A stretch of DNA of 45,332 nucleotides from a virus (taxonomy: Duplodnaviria; Heunggongvirae; Uroviricota; Caudoviricetes). The translations under genes were made by a program, and so were the position numbers. The notes under the pieces are model-generated. The model searched no databases. It had not been told where the DNA came from and was given only the letters and a program-made list of their open reading frames with translations. Every line of letters begins with the position of its first letter. Positions within the stretch are counted from its first letter, which is position 1. The stretch lies in the IMG/VR virus record IMGVR_UViG_3300005688_000042. One strand, 5' to 3'. Of the stretch, positions 1,609 through 16,593 are shown piece by piece.

Positions 1609-2025
1609 ATGACCAATCTAATCATTCCTACTACTCGTCAGCTTCGCTTCTACAATAGAGCGAAGCTGATTGCGTTGAAGAGCGAGCATGAGAAGCCCAT
1701 GGGCTGTGTGATCGTATCCGGTAACTATGTAGTCTCTGAAGGCTTCAATCGTTTAAAGACTCACCCAATTCAATTTAGGAATGATCGTAAGGTCAACTAT
1801 TACTCACCTTTTGCCAAGATACATGCGGAGATTGATGCACTGATTAGGTCTAAGGATTTCGATCTATCTGGTTGTGAAATCTTCTTGTACCGCCAAGACA
1901 AGCATGGTAGTATTGCTAACAGTAGGCCATGCATCTCTTGTATGCCTGCATTGTCTATAGCTGGGATTAAACATATCTTTTATACTTCAACTGAAGGATT
2001 CTGTTACCATGGTAAAATGGTTTGA
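1609..2025 (+). CDS. zinc-dependent cytidine/dCMP deaminase family protein
   Basis: HAE (IHAEIDAL) and PCxxC (RPCISC) motifs. Confidence 0.85.
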   Translation: MTNLIIPTTRQLRFYNRAKLIALKSEHEKPMGCVIVSGNYVVSEGFNRLKTHPIQFRNDRKVNYYSPFAKIHAEIDALIRSKDFDLSGCEIFLYRQDKHGSIANSRPCISCMPALSIAGIKHIFYTSTEGFCYHGKMV

Positions 2026-6128: not shown

Positions 6129-6758
6129 TTACGTTTCCTCATAAAAGATATGATCACCAATCTTAGCCAGACGCTTGAGTTTACTGTAATCCCATTTTGG
6201 GGACACATAGTCAGCGTGGAACATTGTAGCCCCCTTTATAACAGGATCGACACGACCAAGCAAGGCATCTTCTGCAACTTTTTGCGCACGATTCCAAGCG
6301 GCTAGTTCTTCTTTAGAGGCAAGATTGGGATTGTCAGACTTGCCATCACACTTCCACGAAAACTGGCACACACCACGTTTACGTTGTTCTGAGACAACTC
6401 CACAGATAGTAGGCGGATAGTTTTTTCGTTTAACACGTTCTAGGGTGACGACTGCAATTGCCTGTTTACCCACCTTTGGCTGATTGCGAGCCTCAAAGTA
6501 GATATTCTTGACCAGACAATTATACTCTTTTTCATTGATGTATACAATGTTTTCTTTGACCACAATTTCAGCTTCAGCGTGAACTACACGCAACCGATCT
6601 TCAATTTCATCTGCTGAATAAAACTTTGGTTTTGGTAATTCCACACTCTGCTGGTGGAATGTAATTTTAGGGTTGAAATCTGAAAGCAAGATCATAAAAC
6701 CGATCTGTGTGATTGCCAACATGATGACAATGGAACGAAGAAGTACCTTCGTGTACAT
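6129..6758 (-). CDS. SleB/CwlJ-like cell wall hydrolase (Hydrolase_2)
   Basis: 'CLVKNIYFEARNQ', 'TICGVV', 'CQFSW', 'GATMFHADYVSPKW', 'IGDHIFY'; N-terminal TM. Confidence 0.9.
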   Translation of the reverse strand: MYTKVLLRSIVIMLAITQIGFMILLSDFNPKITFHQQSVELPKPKFYSADEIEDRLRVVHAEAEIVVKENIVYINEKEYNCLVKNIYFEARNQPKVGKQAIAVVTLERVKRKNYPPTICGVVSEQRKRGVCQFSWKCDGKSDNPNLASKEELAAWNRAQKVAEDALLGRVDPVIKGATMFHADYVSPKWDYSKLKRLAKIGDHIFYEET

Positions 6759-6827
6759 TTCTTTCTCCTGTTGTTAGAGTGTATATTTATATTACACCAG
6801 AACTTATGTCCTGTCAAGAGGGAATTT

Positions 6828-6904
6828 TGGTGGCTGGGGGAGGATTCGAACCTCCGATCTCAATCTTATCAGGATTGCGCCCTAGACCGCTAGGCTACCC
6901 GGCC
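6828..6904 (-). tRNA. tRNA-Ile(GAU)
   Basis: CAATC-CTGATAA-GATTG anticodon arm, full cloverleaf, CCA. Confidence 0.95.
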
Positions 6905-7015
6905 ATCATATCAAAGAATTTCGCAAATTGCTAGGAGAACTGTACTCCCGGATACGTTTTTTTACTTTTGGCGTAAGGTACGCTACCTGCCACAGTTTTA
7001 ATTATTTGCGAAAAT

Positions 7016-7102
7016 TGGAGCCGCCCACAGGATTCAAACCTGCGATGGACTTTCGTCGTCACCTTACAAAAGTGCTCCCTTCAATCTCTCGGGCAAGGCG
7101 GC
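7016..7102 (-). tRNA. tRNA-Thr(UGU) with a long variable arm (atypical)
   Basis: GCCGCCT/GGGCGGC acceptor (C2:G71), loop TTTGTAA, 15-nt variable arm with GAC-GAAA-GTC, T-loop TTTGAAT, CCA. Confidence 0.75.
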
Positions 7103-7111
7103 ATTACAATT

Positions 7112-7188
7112 TGGGGGAGATGGAGGTATTCGAAACCTCTCCTTTACTGTCACAGAGTAATATGCGAAACCATTACAATACATCTCCC
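7112..7188 (-). tRNA. tRNA-His(GUG)
   Basis: G-1:C73 pair, TTACT-CTGTGAC-AGTAA anticodon arm, CCA. Confidence 0.93.
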
Positions 7189-7211
7189 ACTGAAATATTT
7201 TACAACTAATT

Positions 7212-7291
7212 TGGTAGCGCAGGGGGGACTTGAACCCAACCATCCGCAGAGATTATGAGTCTCGCCTTCTGCCAATTGAATGTACCGCGCG
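7212..7291 (-). tRNA. tRNA-Met(CAU), atypical
   Basis: Loop CTCATAA; C1.U72 mismatch but no GGG/CCC anticodon stem; T-stem with two mismatches; CCA. Confidence 0.7.
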
Positions 7292-7300
7292 TCAAATTTT

Positions 7301-7379
7301 TGGTGGAGTATATCGGTAACTCTCCGATCTGAATTCCGCAGTGCAAGTGCAGCGACCACCATATGCAGTCCCATACCCC
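7301..7379 (-). tRNA. tRNA-Ala(UGC) with non-canonical T-loop
   Basis: G3.U70 pair, CTGCA-CTTGCAC-TGCGG anticodon arm, T-loop AGAGTTA, CCA. Confidence 0.85.
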
Positions 7380-7501
7380 AAATATCTTGTAAATCTATTT
7401 ATCTAATTAAGCATGTCGTCCAAAATGCCCACTTATTTTGAACTAACCCTTCTTTCTTCATAGAGCTGGATGCTATTAGGCTAAACATGCTTAAATAATT
7501 C

Positions 7502-7578
7502 TGGTGGCGCGTGTAGGAATCGAACCTACTCAATATCCGTCTTGTAAGGGCGGCGCTTTCCCACTAAGCTAACGAGCC
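7502..7578 (-). tRNA. tRNA-Val(UAC)
   Basis: Loop CTTACAA, TTCGATT T-loop, CCA. Confidence 0.9.
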
Positions 7579-7588
7579 AAAATCTTTA

Positions 7589-7661
7589 TCAGGGATGTAG
7601 GATTTGAACCTACGATACGAGAGTCCAGGTCTCGGATGTTACCAGACTACATTAATCCCTG
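7589..7661 (-). tRNA. tRNA-Pro(UGG), second copy, atypical loop, no encoded CCA
   Basis: C1:G72 and A73 (Pro identity), CGAGA-CCTGGAC-TCTCG (C33, A37). Confidence 0.75.
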
Positions 7662-7784
7662 TGATTTTTATATTTAGAGATATTACAAATCTAAAAATTC
7701 TTAATGTTGTGTAAGAGTAAACCAGAAGAGAAGGATGCGTTTAAAAGGAAACATCTATCTTACACAACATGAAAAATTCTAAAT

Positions 7785-8635
7785 CTTGAATGCCTGAGAT
7801 TATAGCATATCGTTGGTTGCCTTTCAAGTGATTATCCAATCGGTGCTTAATCGACAGGTTCCACTTTTATCCACTTCCTCAAGGAAGTATCAACCATAGC
7901 GGCCTTTTTATACTAGAGGCAATTCTAGTGTCACTATAACCTATTCCAAGTTCTGTCTACCGCCTACTTTGCGAGCAGTGCAGGGTGCTACCCCTTACGT
8001 GCAACTTTCCTTGAACAACATATCGCCTTGCGAGCTTTACGTTGACTCAATTCACCGAAGTGTTGAGTATTACGCTACTTTCAGTTACAGTCGGTGACAA
8101 CTTTGCGTTTTAGTGTGGAATCGAACCACTGCGTTTTGTATAAGGCAAAACATCTAACCAATAGATAAAGTCTAACCTCCTAAGATGCGTGTCACCGTGA
8201 CTCCATATAACTTTATTATACGGAATACCACACACGTCCTTTCATCCGCTAAGATTACTCGTACTAGTGTATACCTTTGTGTGTCTAACCGATGAAGGCT
8301 AGTCCCACAACCTTATACCCTTTGTATGCGCCCTCGTCCGCTAAGACTCAAACCTCATACCTTGGCATTCAACATCTGTTCTAGACATGTTTGCGTGTGA
8401 TAGAATCTTGCGGATTCTTAGCTGAAGCTACACCGTTGGCCTCGCCAGCTATTGTCTCACCATGTTGTAAAACTTATACGAGTTTTCATCCTCGTCCTAC
8501 CATTTCTGGTAGTGTATTGTGCCATTGTTTAGATGGGCCATTTCTGGTGGCTGACTAGGGAGGCTGTCAACCTTTGAGCACCTTGCGATACTCTTTCCGA
8601 TCACCGATTCATTTCTTCCTCGGAGTGCTAAACCA
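7785..8635 (-). ncRNA. GOLLD-like giant structured RNA (~850 nt)
   Basis: ORF-free; many GNRA-capped hairpins; long-range helix TTGAATGCC (8372-8364) with GGCATTCAA (7794-7786); 3' end AATCTCAGGC; lies in a tRNA cluster and holds a tRNA-like insert, as known for GOLLD. Confidence 0.72.
8107..8177 (-). pseudogene. degenerate tRNA-like insert inside the giant RNA
   Basis: D-arm ATCT-ATTGGTT-AGAT, TTTTG-CCTTATA-CAAAA hairpin, GTGG-TTCGATT-CCAC T-arm, broken acceptor stem, no CCA. Confidence 0.65.
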
Positions 8636-8686
8636 GACACCTTACGGTGTTTCGTCTCTTTTACGGGGAGACTCATCAGTGATTCC
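8630..8686 (-). ncRNA. type I hammerhead ribozyme
   Basis: GAAUCA CUGAUGA GUCUC-CCCGUAAAA-GAGAC GAAA CACC-GUAA-GGUG UC|UGGUUU: complete core, stems I-III, GUC triplet; cleavage predicted between 8636 and 8635. Confidence 0.93.
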
Positions 8687-8704
8687 CGTTACTGCATGTT
8701 GTGT

Positions 8705-8733
8705 ACTATACTCTACTACTTTTCATCTGTCAA
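8705..8733 (-). promoter_or_regulatory. sigma70-type promoter for the hammerhead/giant RNA transcript
   Basis: TTGACA-17 nt-TATAGT on the minus strand. Confidence 0.85.
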
Positions 8734-8754
8734 CTGCATCATAAGCAAGGTAAA

Positions 8755-8915
8755 GAAAATAGGACGCCAATGTTTCGCCATTGACACAGAATCAATTAAG
8801 TCCTGTTGGTTGCGGTCCATATTCTTGTGTGGACACATGATACTTTGTTGCATGTTAGTATCAGACACTTTTAGGTTCAACCTCAACCTGCTACTCGTAG
8901 TGATAACCTATTTTC
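8755..8915 (-). ncRNA. candidate multi-branch structured RNA
   Basis: Closed by GAAAATAGG/CCTATTTTC; internal hairpins AGGTT/AACCT, TGATAC/GTATCA, GTCCA/TGGAC, ACAGGA/TTCTGT, GTCAATG-GCGAAA-CATTGGC. Confidence 0.5.
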
Positions 8916-8937
8916 GTTCGGCTTACAATTTTAACTT

Positions 8938-9011
8938 TGGTGGAACTTCTTGGAATCGAACCAAGTTTCTCTGTACTTCACACAGTCACATAGCCTTTAT
9001 GTTAAAGTTCC
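8938..9011 (-). tRNA. tRNA-Phe(GAA)
   Basis: GGAACTT/AAGTTCC acceptor, loop GTGAAGT, TTCGATT, CCA. Confidence 0.85.
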
Positions 9012-9015
9012 ATTA

Positions 9016-9105
9016 TGGTGGGCTGTGATGGTATCGAACCATCGTGGTCATATTGCAGACTTCTGCTTTACAGGCAGACCCGTATCCTTAACGGTCTAAC
9101 AACCC
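9016..9105 (-). tRNA. tRNA-Tyr(GUA)
   Basis: TCTGC-CTGTAAA-GCAGA anticodon arm, long variable arm, A73, CCA. Confidence 0.92.
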
Positions 9106-9158
9106 TCTTACATCTTAAATTCTACAGTACTATTTAGTGTTTGTCAACAACTAAATTT

Positions 9159-9236
9159 TGGTGCGCTGAGAGGGATTCGGACCCTCACTGTACAGATTTT
9201 AAGTCTGTTGTCTCCTACCAGTTGGACTACCAGCAC
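9159..9236 (-). tRNA. tRNA-Leu(UAA), short variable loop
   Basis: ACAGA-CTTAAAA-TCTGT anticodon arm, 5-nt variable loop, CCA. Confidence 0.92.
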
Positions 9237-9253
9237 ATATTCGTTACAAATTC

Positions 9254-9331
9254 TGGTATAGCGGACGAGATTCGAACTCGCAGTCTTCCAATTTGAAAAA
9301 ATGGCGTTTTTGCCGGTTAAACTACCGCTAT
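9254..9331 (-). tRNA. tRNA-Glu(UUC), atypical acceptor
   Basis: ATAGCGG/CCGCTAT acceptor, CCATT-TTTTCAA-ATTGG anticodon arm (one U.U), TTCGAAT, CCA. Confidence 0.8.
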
Positions 9332-9428
9332 ATAAATTATTGTGATAAGTTTATCGTTAAAGGAGTTTTTTCTTTGAAATAGATAATCCTAAAACTTTCG
9401 ACCACAAATTCAAATAATACCAATCTAT

Positions 9429-9593
9429 TTAGTCTTTGTCAACATCATCAAATTCATCATCGCTCAATGTATATAGATAACATACCAGAACAATGAAAAA
9501 CACTATGACGTTAGTTGCAAACAGTATAGGTGAAACAAAGATCGTTGTCAAGCATGATACTGTGAATATTGTAATTATTTGTTCTTTGTTCAC
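9429..9593 (-). CDS. small membrane protein
   Basis: Manually read ORF MNKEQIITIFTVSCLTTIFVSPILFATNVIVFFIVLVCYLYTLSDDEFDDVDKD; GTG start, weak RBS. Confidence 0.4.
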   Translation of the reverse strand: MNKEQIITIFTVSCLTTIFVSPILFATNVIVFFIVLVCYLYTLSDDEFDDVDKD

Positions 9594-9618
9594 AATATCA
9601 CTGTAAATTGTTAAATTT

Positions 9619-9696
9619 TGGTGCGCTAGGTGGGATTTGAACCCACACTGTACAGAATCTAAACCTGTTGCCTCCTGCCAATTGGGCTACCAGCGC
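9619..9696 (-). tRNA. tRNA-Leu(UAG), short variable loop
   Basis: ACAGG-TTTAGAT-TCTGT anticodon arm, 5-nt variable loop, CCA. Confidence 0.92.
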
Positions 9697-9708
9697 ATTA
9701 ACATTTAT

Positions 9709-9918
9709 TTATGCAGGTTGGTTACTACCCAATTCCCACTCTCTGAACGACTTGGTGTTACCATCCAAGTCAGCACAATGGACAAGATTATACGCATACT
9801 TCATGCAACCTACAAGCCTTTCTACACTCTTAACAAAATATACATCGCCAGTGGTTCTTTGGTACACTTCTTCACCTTTCCTGAACTCTGGAGGAGGATA
9901 GTATGCACTTTCATTCAT
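9709..9918 (-). CDS. hypothetical protein (SH3-like beta pattern)
   Basis: 69-aa ORF 'FRKGEEVYQRTTG..YFVK'. Confidence 0.55.
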   Translation of the reverse strand: MNESAYYPPPEFRKGEEVYQRTTGDVYFVKSVERLVGCMKYAYNLVHCADLDGNTKSFREWELGSNQPA

Positions 9919-10108
9919 AGAATGATCATTCCTAAGATGACAAAGAAGATTACTGTTCTGAAAGTATTATTGTATTCTATGTCATCGTTCATGTCAAGTC
10001 CTTAGATTACAAGAGTCCACCAGAATGGTACGAGGAAGATCATAATTGCAATTGCAGATAGAACTAACTTTACGGTTTCCATTTTTACTTTCCTATTATA
10101 TAGTCTTG

Positions 10109-10184
10109 CGGGCATGGAGGGATTCGAACCCCCATCTACTCCGTTACGGTACTAGAGCTTAGAAGACTCTGCCGGTACATGCCC
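10109..10184 (-). tRNA. D-armless tRNA-Arg(UCU)-like RNA with long variable arm
   Basis: GGGCATG/CATGCCC acceptor, only TACCGGC before AGAGT-CTTCTAA-GCTCT, 20-nt variable region, canonical T-arm, G73, no CCA. Confidence 0.7.
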
Positions 10185-10192
10185 GTATTATT

Positions 10193-10268
10193 TGGTGGAC
10201 CCAGAAGGACGTCGAACCTCCATCTCTGGAACTACTCCCAGTGCTTTATCCGCTTAAGCTACAGGACC
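10193..10268 (-). pseudogene. tRNA-Arg-like RNA without an anticodon loop
   Basis: Arg-type D-loop (GGATA), anticodon arm CTGGGA-GTAG-TTCCAG, 8-nt T-loop, encoded ACCA. Confidence 0.7.
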
Positions 10269-10305
10269 ACATATTTTCAAATTCTAGCTTATTTATGCTT
10301 GCGCG

Positions 10306-10482
10306 TCAAGCCTTTTTACCGAGGATCGCAGCCACAAATTGGATAGATTGATCTATTGTAAAACCTTGGCGCAAAAAAGCTTCATGCTGCTGTCGCGAAA
10401 ACTTCGCAATATTATCAGCCAGTGGTCCTTCAATGGCCGCATCAAAAAATCCGTTTGCTTGCTTCAATAGTTCTTCAAACAT
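10306..10482 (-). CDS. hypothetical protein
   Basis: Manually read 58-aa ORF MFEELLKQANG..., AAGGA RBS. Confidence 0.55.
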   Translation of the reverse strand: MFEELLKQANGFFDAAIEGPLADNIAKFSRQQHEAFLRQGFTIDQSIQFVAAILGKKA

Positions 10483-10503
10483 GGTATTTTCCTTTATAGT
10501 TAG

Positions 10504-10698
10504 TTAAAACAATCCGAACACTGCCTTGATGAAGAATGCTATCGCAAAGAATGCGAGAAAGCAAACACCAACACCAAACATGATAAAGGCGAATGCTGCT
10601 ACACCAAACAGCAACGACTTGAATGTAATATAAATGACCATGAAGATTGCTTCAATGATGGAGAAGAAATCTGAGAAGTAGTCGCCGAAGGTTTTCAC
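10504..10698 (-). CDS. small membrane protein
   Basis: Hydrophobic 64-aa ORF with upstream TTGACA-17-TATATT. Confidence 0.6.
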   Translation of the reverse strand: MKTFGDYFSDFFSIIEAIFMVIYITFKSLLFGVAAFAFIMFGVGVCFLAFFAIAFFIKAVFGLF

Positions 10699-10867
10699 GA
10701 AAGTTGTCCAGTAGTTGAGTTGGTATTAATATACTTGATGCAATCTTCTTTGTCAAGTGCCTCAAGATCTTCTTTCAGATTCTTGCGAAGTTCAGCGGCC
10801 TCGTCTTGGTTAAGGAAACAAGGTTTAAAGTATACAACAATTCCATGCGCTTCTGCAAGTTCCAACA

Positions 10868-11197
10868 TTAGGATGTCTCCAAGATGAATGTACGGTTCAT
10901 AAGTCTATACAACTCAAATGCTTTGGCAATTTCTTTCATAGTAGGCAAACGGTTTCCCTTGATCTCGTTGCAACGTCTACATGACAAAACACTGTTGCCA
11001 GCCTTGCGGAAACCTTTTGAGCGTGGGAACAGATGATCGATGGTGTATCCCTTATCATTCTTGTGTCCACCATGATGCGCAAAGTATTCAATATACTTAT
11101 TACAATAGAAGCATCGTGCATTCTGGTAAGCATACAGCAAACTTGTGGGTGGCGCAATGTGTGGTAGCATCTTAGTCTTGTACGCGGGCGGGTTCAT
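10868..11197 (-). CDS. HNH endonuclease
   Basis: CFYC...TIDHLFPRSKG...NSVLSCRRCNEIKG. Confidence 0.9.
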   Translation of the reverse strand: MNPPAYKTKMLPHIAPPTSLLYAYQNARCFYCNKYIEYFAHHGGHKNDKGYTIDHLFPRSKGFRKAGNSVLSCRRCNEIKGNRLPTMKEIAKAFELYRLMNRTFILETS

Positions 11198-16492: not shown

Positions 16493-16593
16493 GGGAGAGT
16501 GGCCAAGCGGTAAGGCAGCAGACTTTTTTAACACTTTTTCGAGAGTATTAAAAAATCTGTTCATCGTGGGTTCGAATCCCACCTCTCCCACCA
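16493..16593 (+). tRNA. tRNA-Lys(UUU)-like gene with a 26-nt hairpin inserted in the anticodon loop
   Basis: Intact acceptor (GGGAGAG/CTCTCCC), D- and T-arms, A73, CCA; stem GCAGA/TCTGT encloses 33 nt instead of 7. Confidence 0.8.

Follow-up and report, generated by a model that had tools for sequence, protein, structure and literature searches.

The minus strand of the window, by which we mean the whole stretch of DNA analyzed here (45,332 nucleotides), encodes a large RNA at 7790-8635 that is, with near certainty, a member of the GOLLD family, and a type I hammerhead ribozyme encoded at its head probably cuts the front end of this RNA free. The window is part of a complete 306,759-base genome, that of a T4-like jumbo phage related to XacN1, with ~30 tRNA genes, a tmRNA and a gp23-type capsid protein 62-64% identical to its counterparts in XacN1, Xoo-sp13, CM1 and RAS14. 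We know of no function for GOLLD RNAs, which are to our knowledge among the largest structured RNAs of that sort.

A preliminary description of the locus had proposed an ORF-free, GOLLD-like RNA of ~850 nt at 7785-8635, inside a tRNA cluster, and the analysis bore out each of these points. No ORF of at least 60 aa overlaps the interval, in which the longest ATG-led frame has 36 aa and stop-free runs extend over at most 65 codons. Genes for tRNA-Pro (7589-7661) and tRNA-Phe (8938-9011) lie on either side on the minus strand; GOLLDs are characteristically found in phages or prophages, close to tRNA genes. The full 416-position Rfam model RF02032, which represents the conserved 3' domain only, matches 7791-8238 on the minus strand with 198.2 bits (E 1.5e-54; gathering cut-off, 150 bits), and the Rfam ROOL model gave no match to the window even at E <= 5. 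The proposed size and both ends agree with the predicted ribozyme cut at 8635 and with the terminal helix P27 at 7790, so delimiting the following parts:

7790-8635, minus strand: predicted mature GOLLD RNA, ~846 nt
7791-8238, minus strand: conserved GOLLD 3' domain (RF02032 model positions 1-416, 198.2 bits)
8239-8635, minus strand: 5' domain of ~397 nt, specific to the hammerhead-led subgroup and outside the Rfam model

The region 7780-8680 folds better than shuffled sequence (z -2.4), as does the 5' domain by itself (z -2.9), and compensatory changes occur in most helices of the 3' domain across 12 homologs. A variable, structured 5' domain and a total of ~800 nt or more are likewise typical of the family; in the 12 complete hammerhead-led homologs, the distance from the cut site to the 3' TCTCA motif is 792-859 nt. 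In the GOLLDs published so far, the 5' domain is variable and measures ~420 nt, and the linker, which is disordered, points to the inside of a cage built from 10 to 14 subunits (PMC12286853, PMC12990946).

The hammerhead, which sits just outside the interval flagged initially, follows a promoter, and the leader comprises these elements:

8705-8733, minus strand: sigma-70-type promoter, TTGACA, 17 nt, TATAGT (11/12)
8631-8689, minus strand: complete type I hammerhead ribozyme (core and covariation)
8689-8685 with 8667-8663, minus strand: 5-bp pseudoknot between the first strand and its partner in loop II
8684-8680 with 8635-8631, minus strand: hammerhead stem I, 5 bp
8679-8673, minus strand: hammerhead core CUGAUGA
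8672-8668 with 8658-8654, minus strand: hammerhead stem II
8653-8651, minus strand: hammerhead GAA
8650-8646 with 8641-8637, minus strand: hammerhead stem III
8636, minus strand: C17, at which the triplet GUC ends
between 8636 and 8635, minus strand: predicted self-cleavage site, after GUC

The promoter suggests a transcription start near 8698, and the core begins ~25 nt past the promoter. The position of hammerhead cleavage is set by the NUH rule; the predicted cut would leave U8635 as the first base of GOLLD, with a 5'-OH. Stems I to III have 5, 5 and 5-6 bp, and, judged by the criteria of PMC3088659, the sequence has the CUGANGA core, the GAA, A15.1-U16.1, H17 and the standard core-adjacent pairs in all three stems. 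It was the only well-formed type I hammerhead that a pattern scan found in the 307-kb genome. We base the assignment on the core and on covariation because the Rfam hammerhead models gave no match in the window (E <= 5), nor in the homologs at gathering score.

That covariation comes from 13 distinct GOLLDs with a hammerhead leader collected by BLAST and pattern scans, namely those of the window, XacN1, RAS14 (same as CM1), BUDD, 2 IMG/VR contigs and 7 metagenome or MAG contigs. The 12 complete homologs score 161-227 bits with the GOLLD model, all above the cut-off, and the GOLLDs of the cultured lytic phages XacN1, RAS14/CM1 and BUDD are unannotated. One of the metagenomic members, L284 (CAZMXB010000002.1), sits in a Rhodoferax MAG, on a contig rich in tRNA genes that is probably of phage origin and gives a hint of a betaproteobacterial host. 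All 13 loci preserve the hammerhead core with the pairs adjoining it, and stems II and III change in sequence yet stay paired. The pseudoknot is present in 11 of 13 loci, giving 50 pairs compared with 33.6 +/- 2.9 when partners were swapped between loci (0/5000). Pseudoknots of this type are needed for fast hammerhead cleavage (PMC3088659). A similar promoter, ending 16-27 nt before the hammerhead core, is found at 10 of the 13 loci.

Given this conservation, cleavage of the hammerhead in vitro is very likely. It is unlikely, by comparison, that the ribozyme is real but slow or conditional, with a leader that mostly misfolds, uncut and cut GOLLD side by side, and cleavage acting as a switch for assembly or decay. 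Such behavior would fit a competing fold in the window of -19.2 kcal/mol, which beats the pseudoknot-free hammerhead (-13.2 kcal/mol) by 6 kcal/mol, as well as the 1-2 additional bases between A9 and stem II in 4 homologs and the competition of stem I with helix P1, described below, over the same bases. However, the folding-energy model leaves out the 5-bp pseudoknot and the core contacts, and in the homologs the gap is 0-4 kcal/mol, mostly 0-3. The core is also invariant in the 13 loci despite 5' domains that are only 41-71% identical to that of the window.

Within the cleaved RNA, the following helices were considered:

8633-8628 with 8532-8527, minus strand: helix P1 (71/78 cells paired versus 61.9 shuffled; 4/6 pairs compensatory)
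8524-8520 with 8367-8363, minus strand: helix (19/20 cells and 4/5 pairs compensatory in the four closest sequences)
8353-8344 with 8339-8330, minus strand: helix of the 5' domain, supported across homologs
8593-8576, minus strand: GNRA-capped hairpin (covariation; 86/91 cells paired)
7790-7808, minus strand: terminal hairpin P27/L27 carrying AAUCUCAG (52/60 cells versus 40.4 shuffled; 4/5 pairs compensatory)
7982-7995, minus strand: hairpin with a self-complementary GC dinucleotide in its loop, ~200 nt from the 3' end

In reading these numbers we gave compensatory pairs more weight than shuffle counts, because related sequences can outdo shuffles without any structure. P1 comprises bases 3-8 of the cleaved RNA, and its overlap with stem I of the ribozyme makes the two helices mutually exclusive. 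In L237 and BUDD, single base changes are accompanied by changes in both alternative partners, that in stem I and that in P1. We infer that the strand passes from stem I to P1 after cleavage.

P27 is the last helix of the Rfam GOLLD model, and in the cryo-EM structure its loop serves as a structural hub (PMC12286853). The 3' motif AAUCUCAGGC named in the preliminary description is present in this hairpin region, at 7801-7792. The loop dinucleotide of the hairpin at 7982-7995 is GC in 9 and CG in 4 of the 13 sequences and is thus self-complementary in all of them. A GC/CG switch was reported for L21a, which forms inter-subunit bridge B8 of the cage (PMC12286853), and the hairpin is the probable equivalent of L21a, with the numbering taken from its position; the switch thereby speaks, indirectly, for a cage.

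Other structural proposals made initially fared less well. Among three hairpins described as GNRA capped, the one at 8593-8576 is a true GNRA stem-loop, whereas those at 8417-8402 and 8036-8024 close as 5-nt CGCAA loops. Such hairpins hardly exceed the number expected by chance: with at least 3 bp there are 3 versus 1.9 +/- 1.4 in shuffled sequence, which is not significant, and with at least 5 bp there are 2 versus 0.3 (p ~0.04). For the proposed 9-bp helix joining 8372-8364 to 7794-7786, the complementarity exists, and by chance alone the 3' end would seldom find such a partner (p ~0.008), but pairing occurs in 36% of cells versus 35% in shuffles. We rejected it as not conserved, its 5' arm pairing with 8524-8520 and its 3' arm in P27, both better supported; the helix is probably not part of the structure.

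Three further candidates were discarded. The 5' end created by cleavage could pair with 7905-7900 in 70 of 72 cells, but this is no better than in shuffles and shows zero compensatory changes. A leader-trailer complement, 8710-8695 with 7771-7756, lies mostly upstream of the inferred start and is absent in L121. A promoter-like site at 7827-7799, within the 3' end, has lost its -10 hexamer in L121 and was taken as a chance occurrence.

The surrounding tRNA array has several features of its own. Downstream of GOLLD, the spacer before tRNA-Pro contains one more structured element:

7696-7778, minus strand: long trailer hairpin in the GOLLD to tRNA-Pro spacer (z -3.9; 21-nt inverted repeat)

A sequence-altered counterpart follows GOLLD in L121, and the hairpin is possibly a processing signal. 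It is one of two long, A/U-rich spacer hairpins between stable-RNA genes on this strand, the other being at 7404-7497, and both are possible signals for RNase III-type processing. Across the array (6691-10929, minus strand), near-consensus sigma-70 promoters number 21, compared with 11.1 +/- 3.2 in shuffles, and 7 of the 21 score 11 of 12. Relaxed thresholds bring out weak tRNA genes on the minus strand at 7216-7290 (CAT anticodon) and 7301-7379 (TGC), and a tRNA gene at 16493-16593 of the window has a 26-nt insertion in its anticodon loop. Elsewhere in the genome, the tmRNA maps to C1:188755-189099 and a tRNA with a CUA anticodon (amber suppressor-like) to C1:111535-111607. XacN1 has a permuted tmRNA (L001:1511-1930), unannotated in its record, ~600 nt upstream of its GOLLD.

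How widespread the leader is was gauged by scans in both directions. Among 36 matches to a hammerhead pattern that included the first bases of the subgroup RNA, from metagenomes and genomes, a GOLLD 3' domain lies downstream of 9/9 well-formed hammerheads and of 0/27 others. An initial pattern scan of viral sequences lacked specificity, with noise making up most of its 117 matches, and yielded ~12 control GOLLDs; a second hammerhead pattern added zero new GOLLDs. Two viral contigs contain well-formed hammerheads (L124:1387-1454, minus strand, and L128:1087-1150) with no GOLLD downstream and no Rfam match. No hammerhead was found in other GOLLD loci across 972 kb, and Rfam gave no match to other ribozyme classes at 17 control loci, our own scans covering type I hammerheads only. 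The leader is present in 6/92 GOLLDs with at least 1 kb upstream, a figure for which the unbiased share is nearer 1/87 because 5 of the 6 entered the set through their resemblance to the window.

A tree built from 71 3' domains places the 12 hammerhead-led rows together on a single branch (97/79, just below the threshold of the tool), with one change for the leader in 98% of the bootstrap replicates. Such a pattern is compatible with a single origin of the leader, without proving it. A profile of the subgroup 5' domain gave no or weak matches (8-31 bits) to other GOLLDs, and this domain is too divergent for mapping onto the solved cages.

The predicted cut falls where GOLLDs begin, since in GOLLDs without a hammerhead the 3' end of a tRNA-Met (836-879 nt) or a promoter (849-912 nt) is often found at a similar distance from the 3' end. 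The hammerhead would thus be an additional means, beside tRNA-Met and promoter, of fixing the 5' end at this point. The arrangement with a tRNA-Met gene ending 836-879 nt from the GOLLD 3' end and no hammerhead is seen in L147, L157, L165, L221, L239 and L064, where tRNA processing could make the 5' end; 5 of these six are weakly similar to the subgroup 5' domain.

In L260, a second complete type I hammerhead (1836-1905, minus strand) lies directly after the GOLLD 3' end, and this GOLLD, flanked by ribozymes on both sides, would carry a 5'-OH and a 2',3'-cyclic phosphate. As both ends would be ligatable, one may ask whether the ribozyme serves circularization, an RtcB-type ligase joining the 5'-OH to a 3' end with a 2',3'-cyclic phosphate. 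We hold this to be very improbable, the least probable of the alternatives: the 3' hammerhead occurs in 1/12 complete loci and not in the window, the end-joining helix is not conserved, and RtcB was not found in the phage genome, though the host could supply it.

The variable linker of the window RNA contains a degenerate tRNA-like module:

8110-8175, minus strand: degenerate tRNA-like module in the variable linker
8166-8152, minus strand: D arm of the module
8151-8133, minus strand: anticodon-like arm with a non-canonical loop
~8129-8115, minus strand: T arm of the module

The module has no full acceptor stem of 7 bp, no CCA or CCA-ready end and no canonical anticodon loop, the anticodon-like loop being without U33 and purine 37. 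Embedded tRNAs and pseudo-tRNAs in GOLLD are already known, and the linker module is in that respect not new. Indeed, 'inhibited storage' of a tRNA by GOLLD was proposed in PMC12990946, which would make GOLLD a store or precursor from which the embedded tRNA is later released as a working tRNA. Consistent with this proposal, tRNA-like arms are present in the linkers of the window RNA and 12 other GOLLDs, and several of these modules are called tRNAs by Rfam or ARAGORN; Rfam tRNA matches fall at the same linker position in L121, L280, L284 and L263, and none falls on the linker of the window itself. Across the 13 modules, however, a CCA follows the T arm in 0/13, acceptor stems have ~3-4 bp, and anticodon loops of 7-8 nt vary between copies. 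The pseudo-tRNA of a mycobacterial GOLLD was, moreover, undetected as a separate RNA (PMC6582537). This pattern argues for a mimic of tRNA shape and against a stored working tRNA, and we regard storage as quite improbable. The full module is missing in 7/12 complete subgroup sequences, which weakens any function that depends on it. XacN1 (L001), RAS14 (L002), BUDD (L254) and L257 have short linkers that retain, where the D arm would be, a small hairpin apparently left over from the module.

We propose the following course of events for the window RNA. Host sigma-70 polymerase would start at the inferred site, and the first ~65 nt would fold into the pseudoknot-stabilized hammerhead, whose perfect core and covariation point to a cut between 8636 and 8635 that would make the exact 5'-OH end of GOLLD without host nucleases. 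Bases 3-8 would then leave stem I and pair ~100 nt downstream as P1, as covariation suggests, which would free the leader and block re-ligation. By homology, the RNA would form two domains, a 5' cap and the conserved 3' domain, and 10 to 14 such subunits would assemble into a cage enclosing the tRNA-like linkers. Formation of the cage, judged by analogy with the solved GOLLDs, is likely, and we have similar, if marginally lower, confidence in the sequence of promoter start, hammerhead maturation, P1 exchange, folding and cage assembly taken together. RNAs with a 5'-OH are poor substrates for the RppH/RNase E route of Proteobacteria. A 5'-OH is not always protective: in Bacillus, RNase J1 degrades the glmS product (PMC11780869).

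As to function, we speculate that the cage is a stable, abundant decoy or sink in a translation-side conflict between phage and host, either by displaying large numbers of tRNA-elbow and anticodon-like arms or by binding ribosomes. We favor this idea because of the location among tRNA genes, the mimicry of tRNA, a ribosome pull-down that has been reported and the patchy presence of GOLLD in related phages; taken by itself it is nonetheless rather doubtful. GOLLD is present in XacN1 and RAS14/CM1 and was undetected in Xoo-sp13, RsoM2USA and PA5oct, a distribution that fits an accessory gene. A role outside translation conflict appears improbable, be it in late virion assembly or lysis, or in processing of the tRNA transcript with GOLLD itself as a large catalytic RNA, the hammerhead making the 5' end only. 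GOLLD levels do rise during lysis, with function left open (PMC12286853), and at all these loci GOLLD is located in tRNA arrays. Yet the promoter is of the host sigma-70 type, with no T4 late-promoter motif in the region scanned upstream of GOLLD, and the solved cages are RNA only and empty save for the linker (PMC12286853). In addition, Xoo-sp13 is the closest capsid relative, and because GOLLD was undetected there, GOLLD is not a core part of morphogenesis.

Returning to the maturation of the RNA, we advance one further idea tentatively, at somewhat less than even confidence: these RNAs may be a self-maturing GOLLD subfamily of proteobacterial lytic phages, in which the exchange of stem I for P1 makes cleavage a requirement for cap folding and cage closure. 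If so, cage assembly would be gated by ribozyme catalysis, and GOLLD function could be tested in cultured phages with one point mutation. The ribozyme makes a precise prediction of where GOLLD starts and of its end chemistry, and one core substitution should block maturation with the body of the RNA untouched.

GOLLD itself is already known, and the hammerhead-led subgroup appears new to the searchable literature: we found no publication linking GOLLD to a hammerhead in a search that did not extend to the original GOLLD paper, and the word 'hammerhead' is absent from the GOLLD cryo-EM paper (PMC12286853). The solved structures, the env-38 14-mer (PDB 9MEE; PMC12286853) and the 10- and 12-mers of Streptococcus agalactiae (reviewed in PMC12990946), are of metagenome or prophage origin, whereas the hammerhead-led subgroup includes cultured lytic phages. 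The window RNA resembles known GOLLDs (RF02032) in its full match to the 3'-domain model, its length of ~800-850 nt, its tRNA-array context, its variable 5' domain of ~400 nt, the tRNA-like sequence in the J13/15 linker, the terminal P27/L27 and the palindromic kissing-loop dinucleotide. It differs from them in that a dedicated promoter and a hammerhead leader define the 5' end of its subgroup, in a 5' domain without clear similarity to those of most other sampled GOLLDs, which offers structural studies a new cap domain, and in the bearers of the subgroup, XacN1-like and BUDD-like lytic phages of Proteobacteria.

The ribozyme shares its core, three stems, NUH triplet and loop II to stem I flank pseudoknot with the type I hammerheads of bacteria and prophages (Perreault et al. 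2011, PMC3088659), for which processing of phage transcripts was proposed. Unlike those, which flank protein-coding genes in varied contexts, it keeps a constant place in front of a large noncoding RNA, and its stem I strand doubles as part of a product helix. Like the theta (HDV-like) ribozymes of gut phages (PMC10879173), it would be a cis-acting phage ribozyme that processes a stable RNA in a tRNA context, with host nucleases proposed to be dispensable. It is of another class, however, and theta ribozymes trim the 3' trailers of tRNAs whereas the hammerhead would make the 5' end of an RNA of ~850 nt, which would extend cis-ribozyme processing in phages from tRNA trailers to a giant noncoding RNA. 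With ROOL, finally, the RNA has in common that it is a large ornate RNA of tRNA islands from a cage-forming family, but the two are unrelated in sequence and fold.
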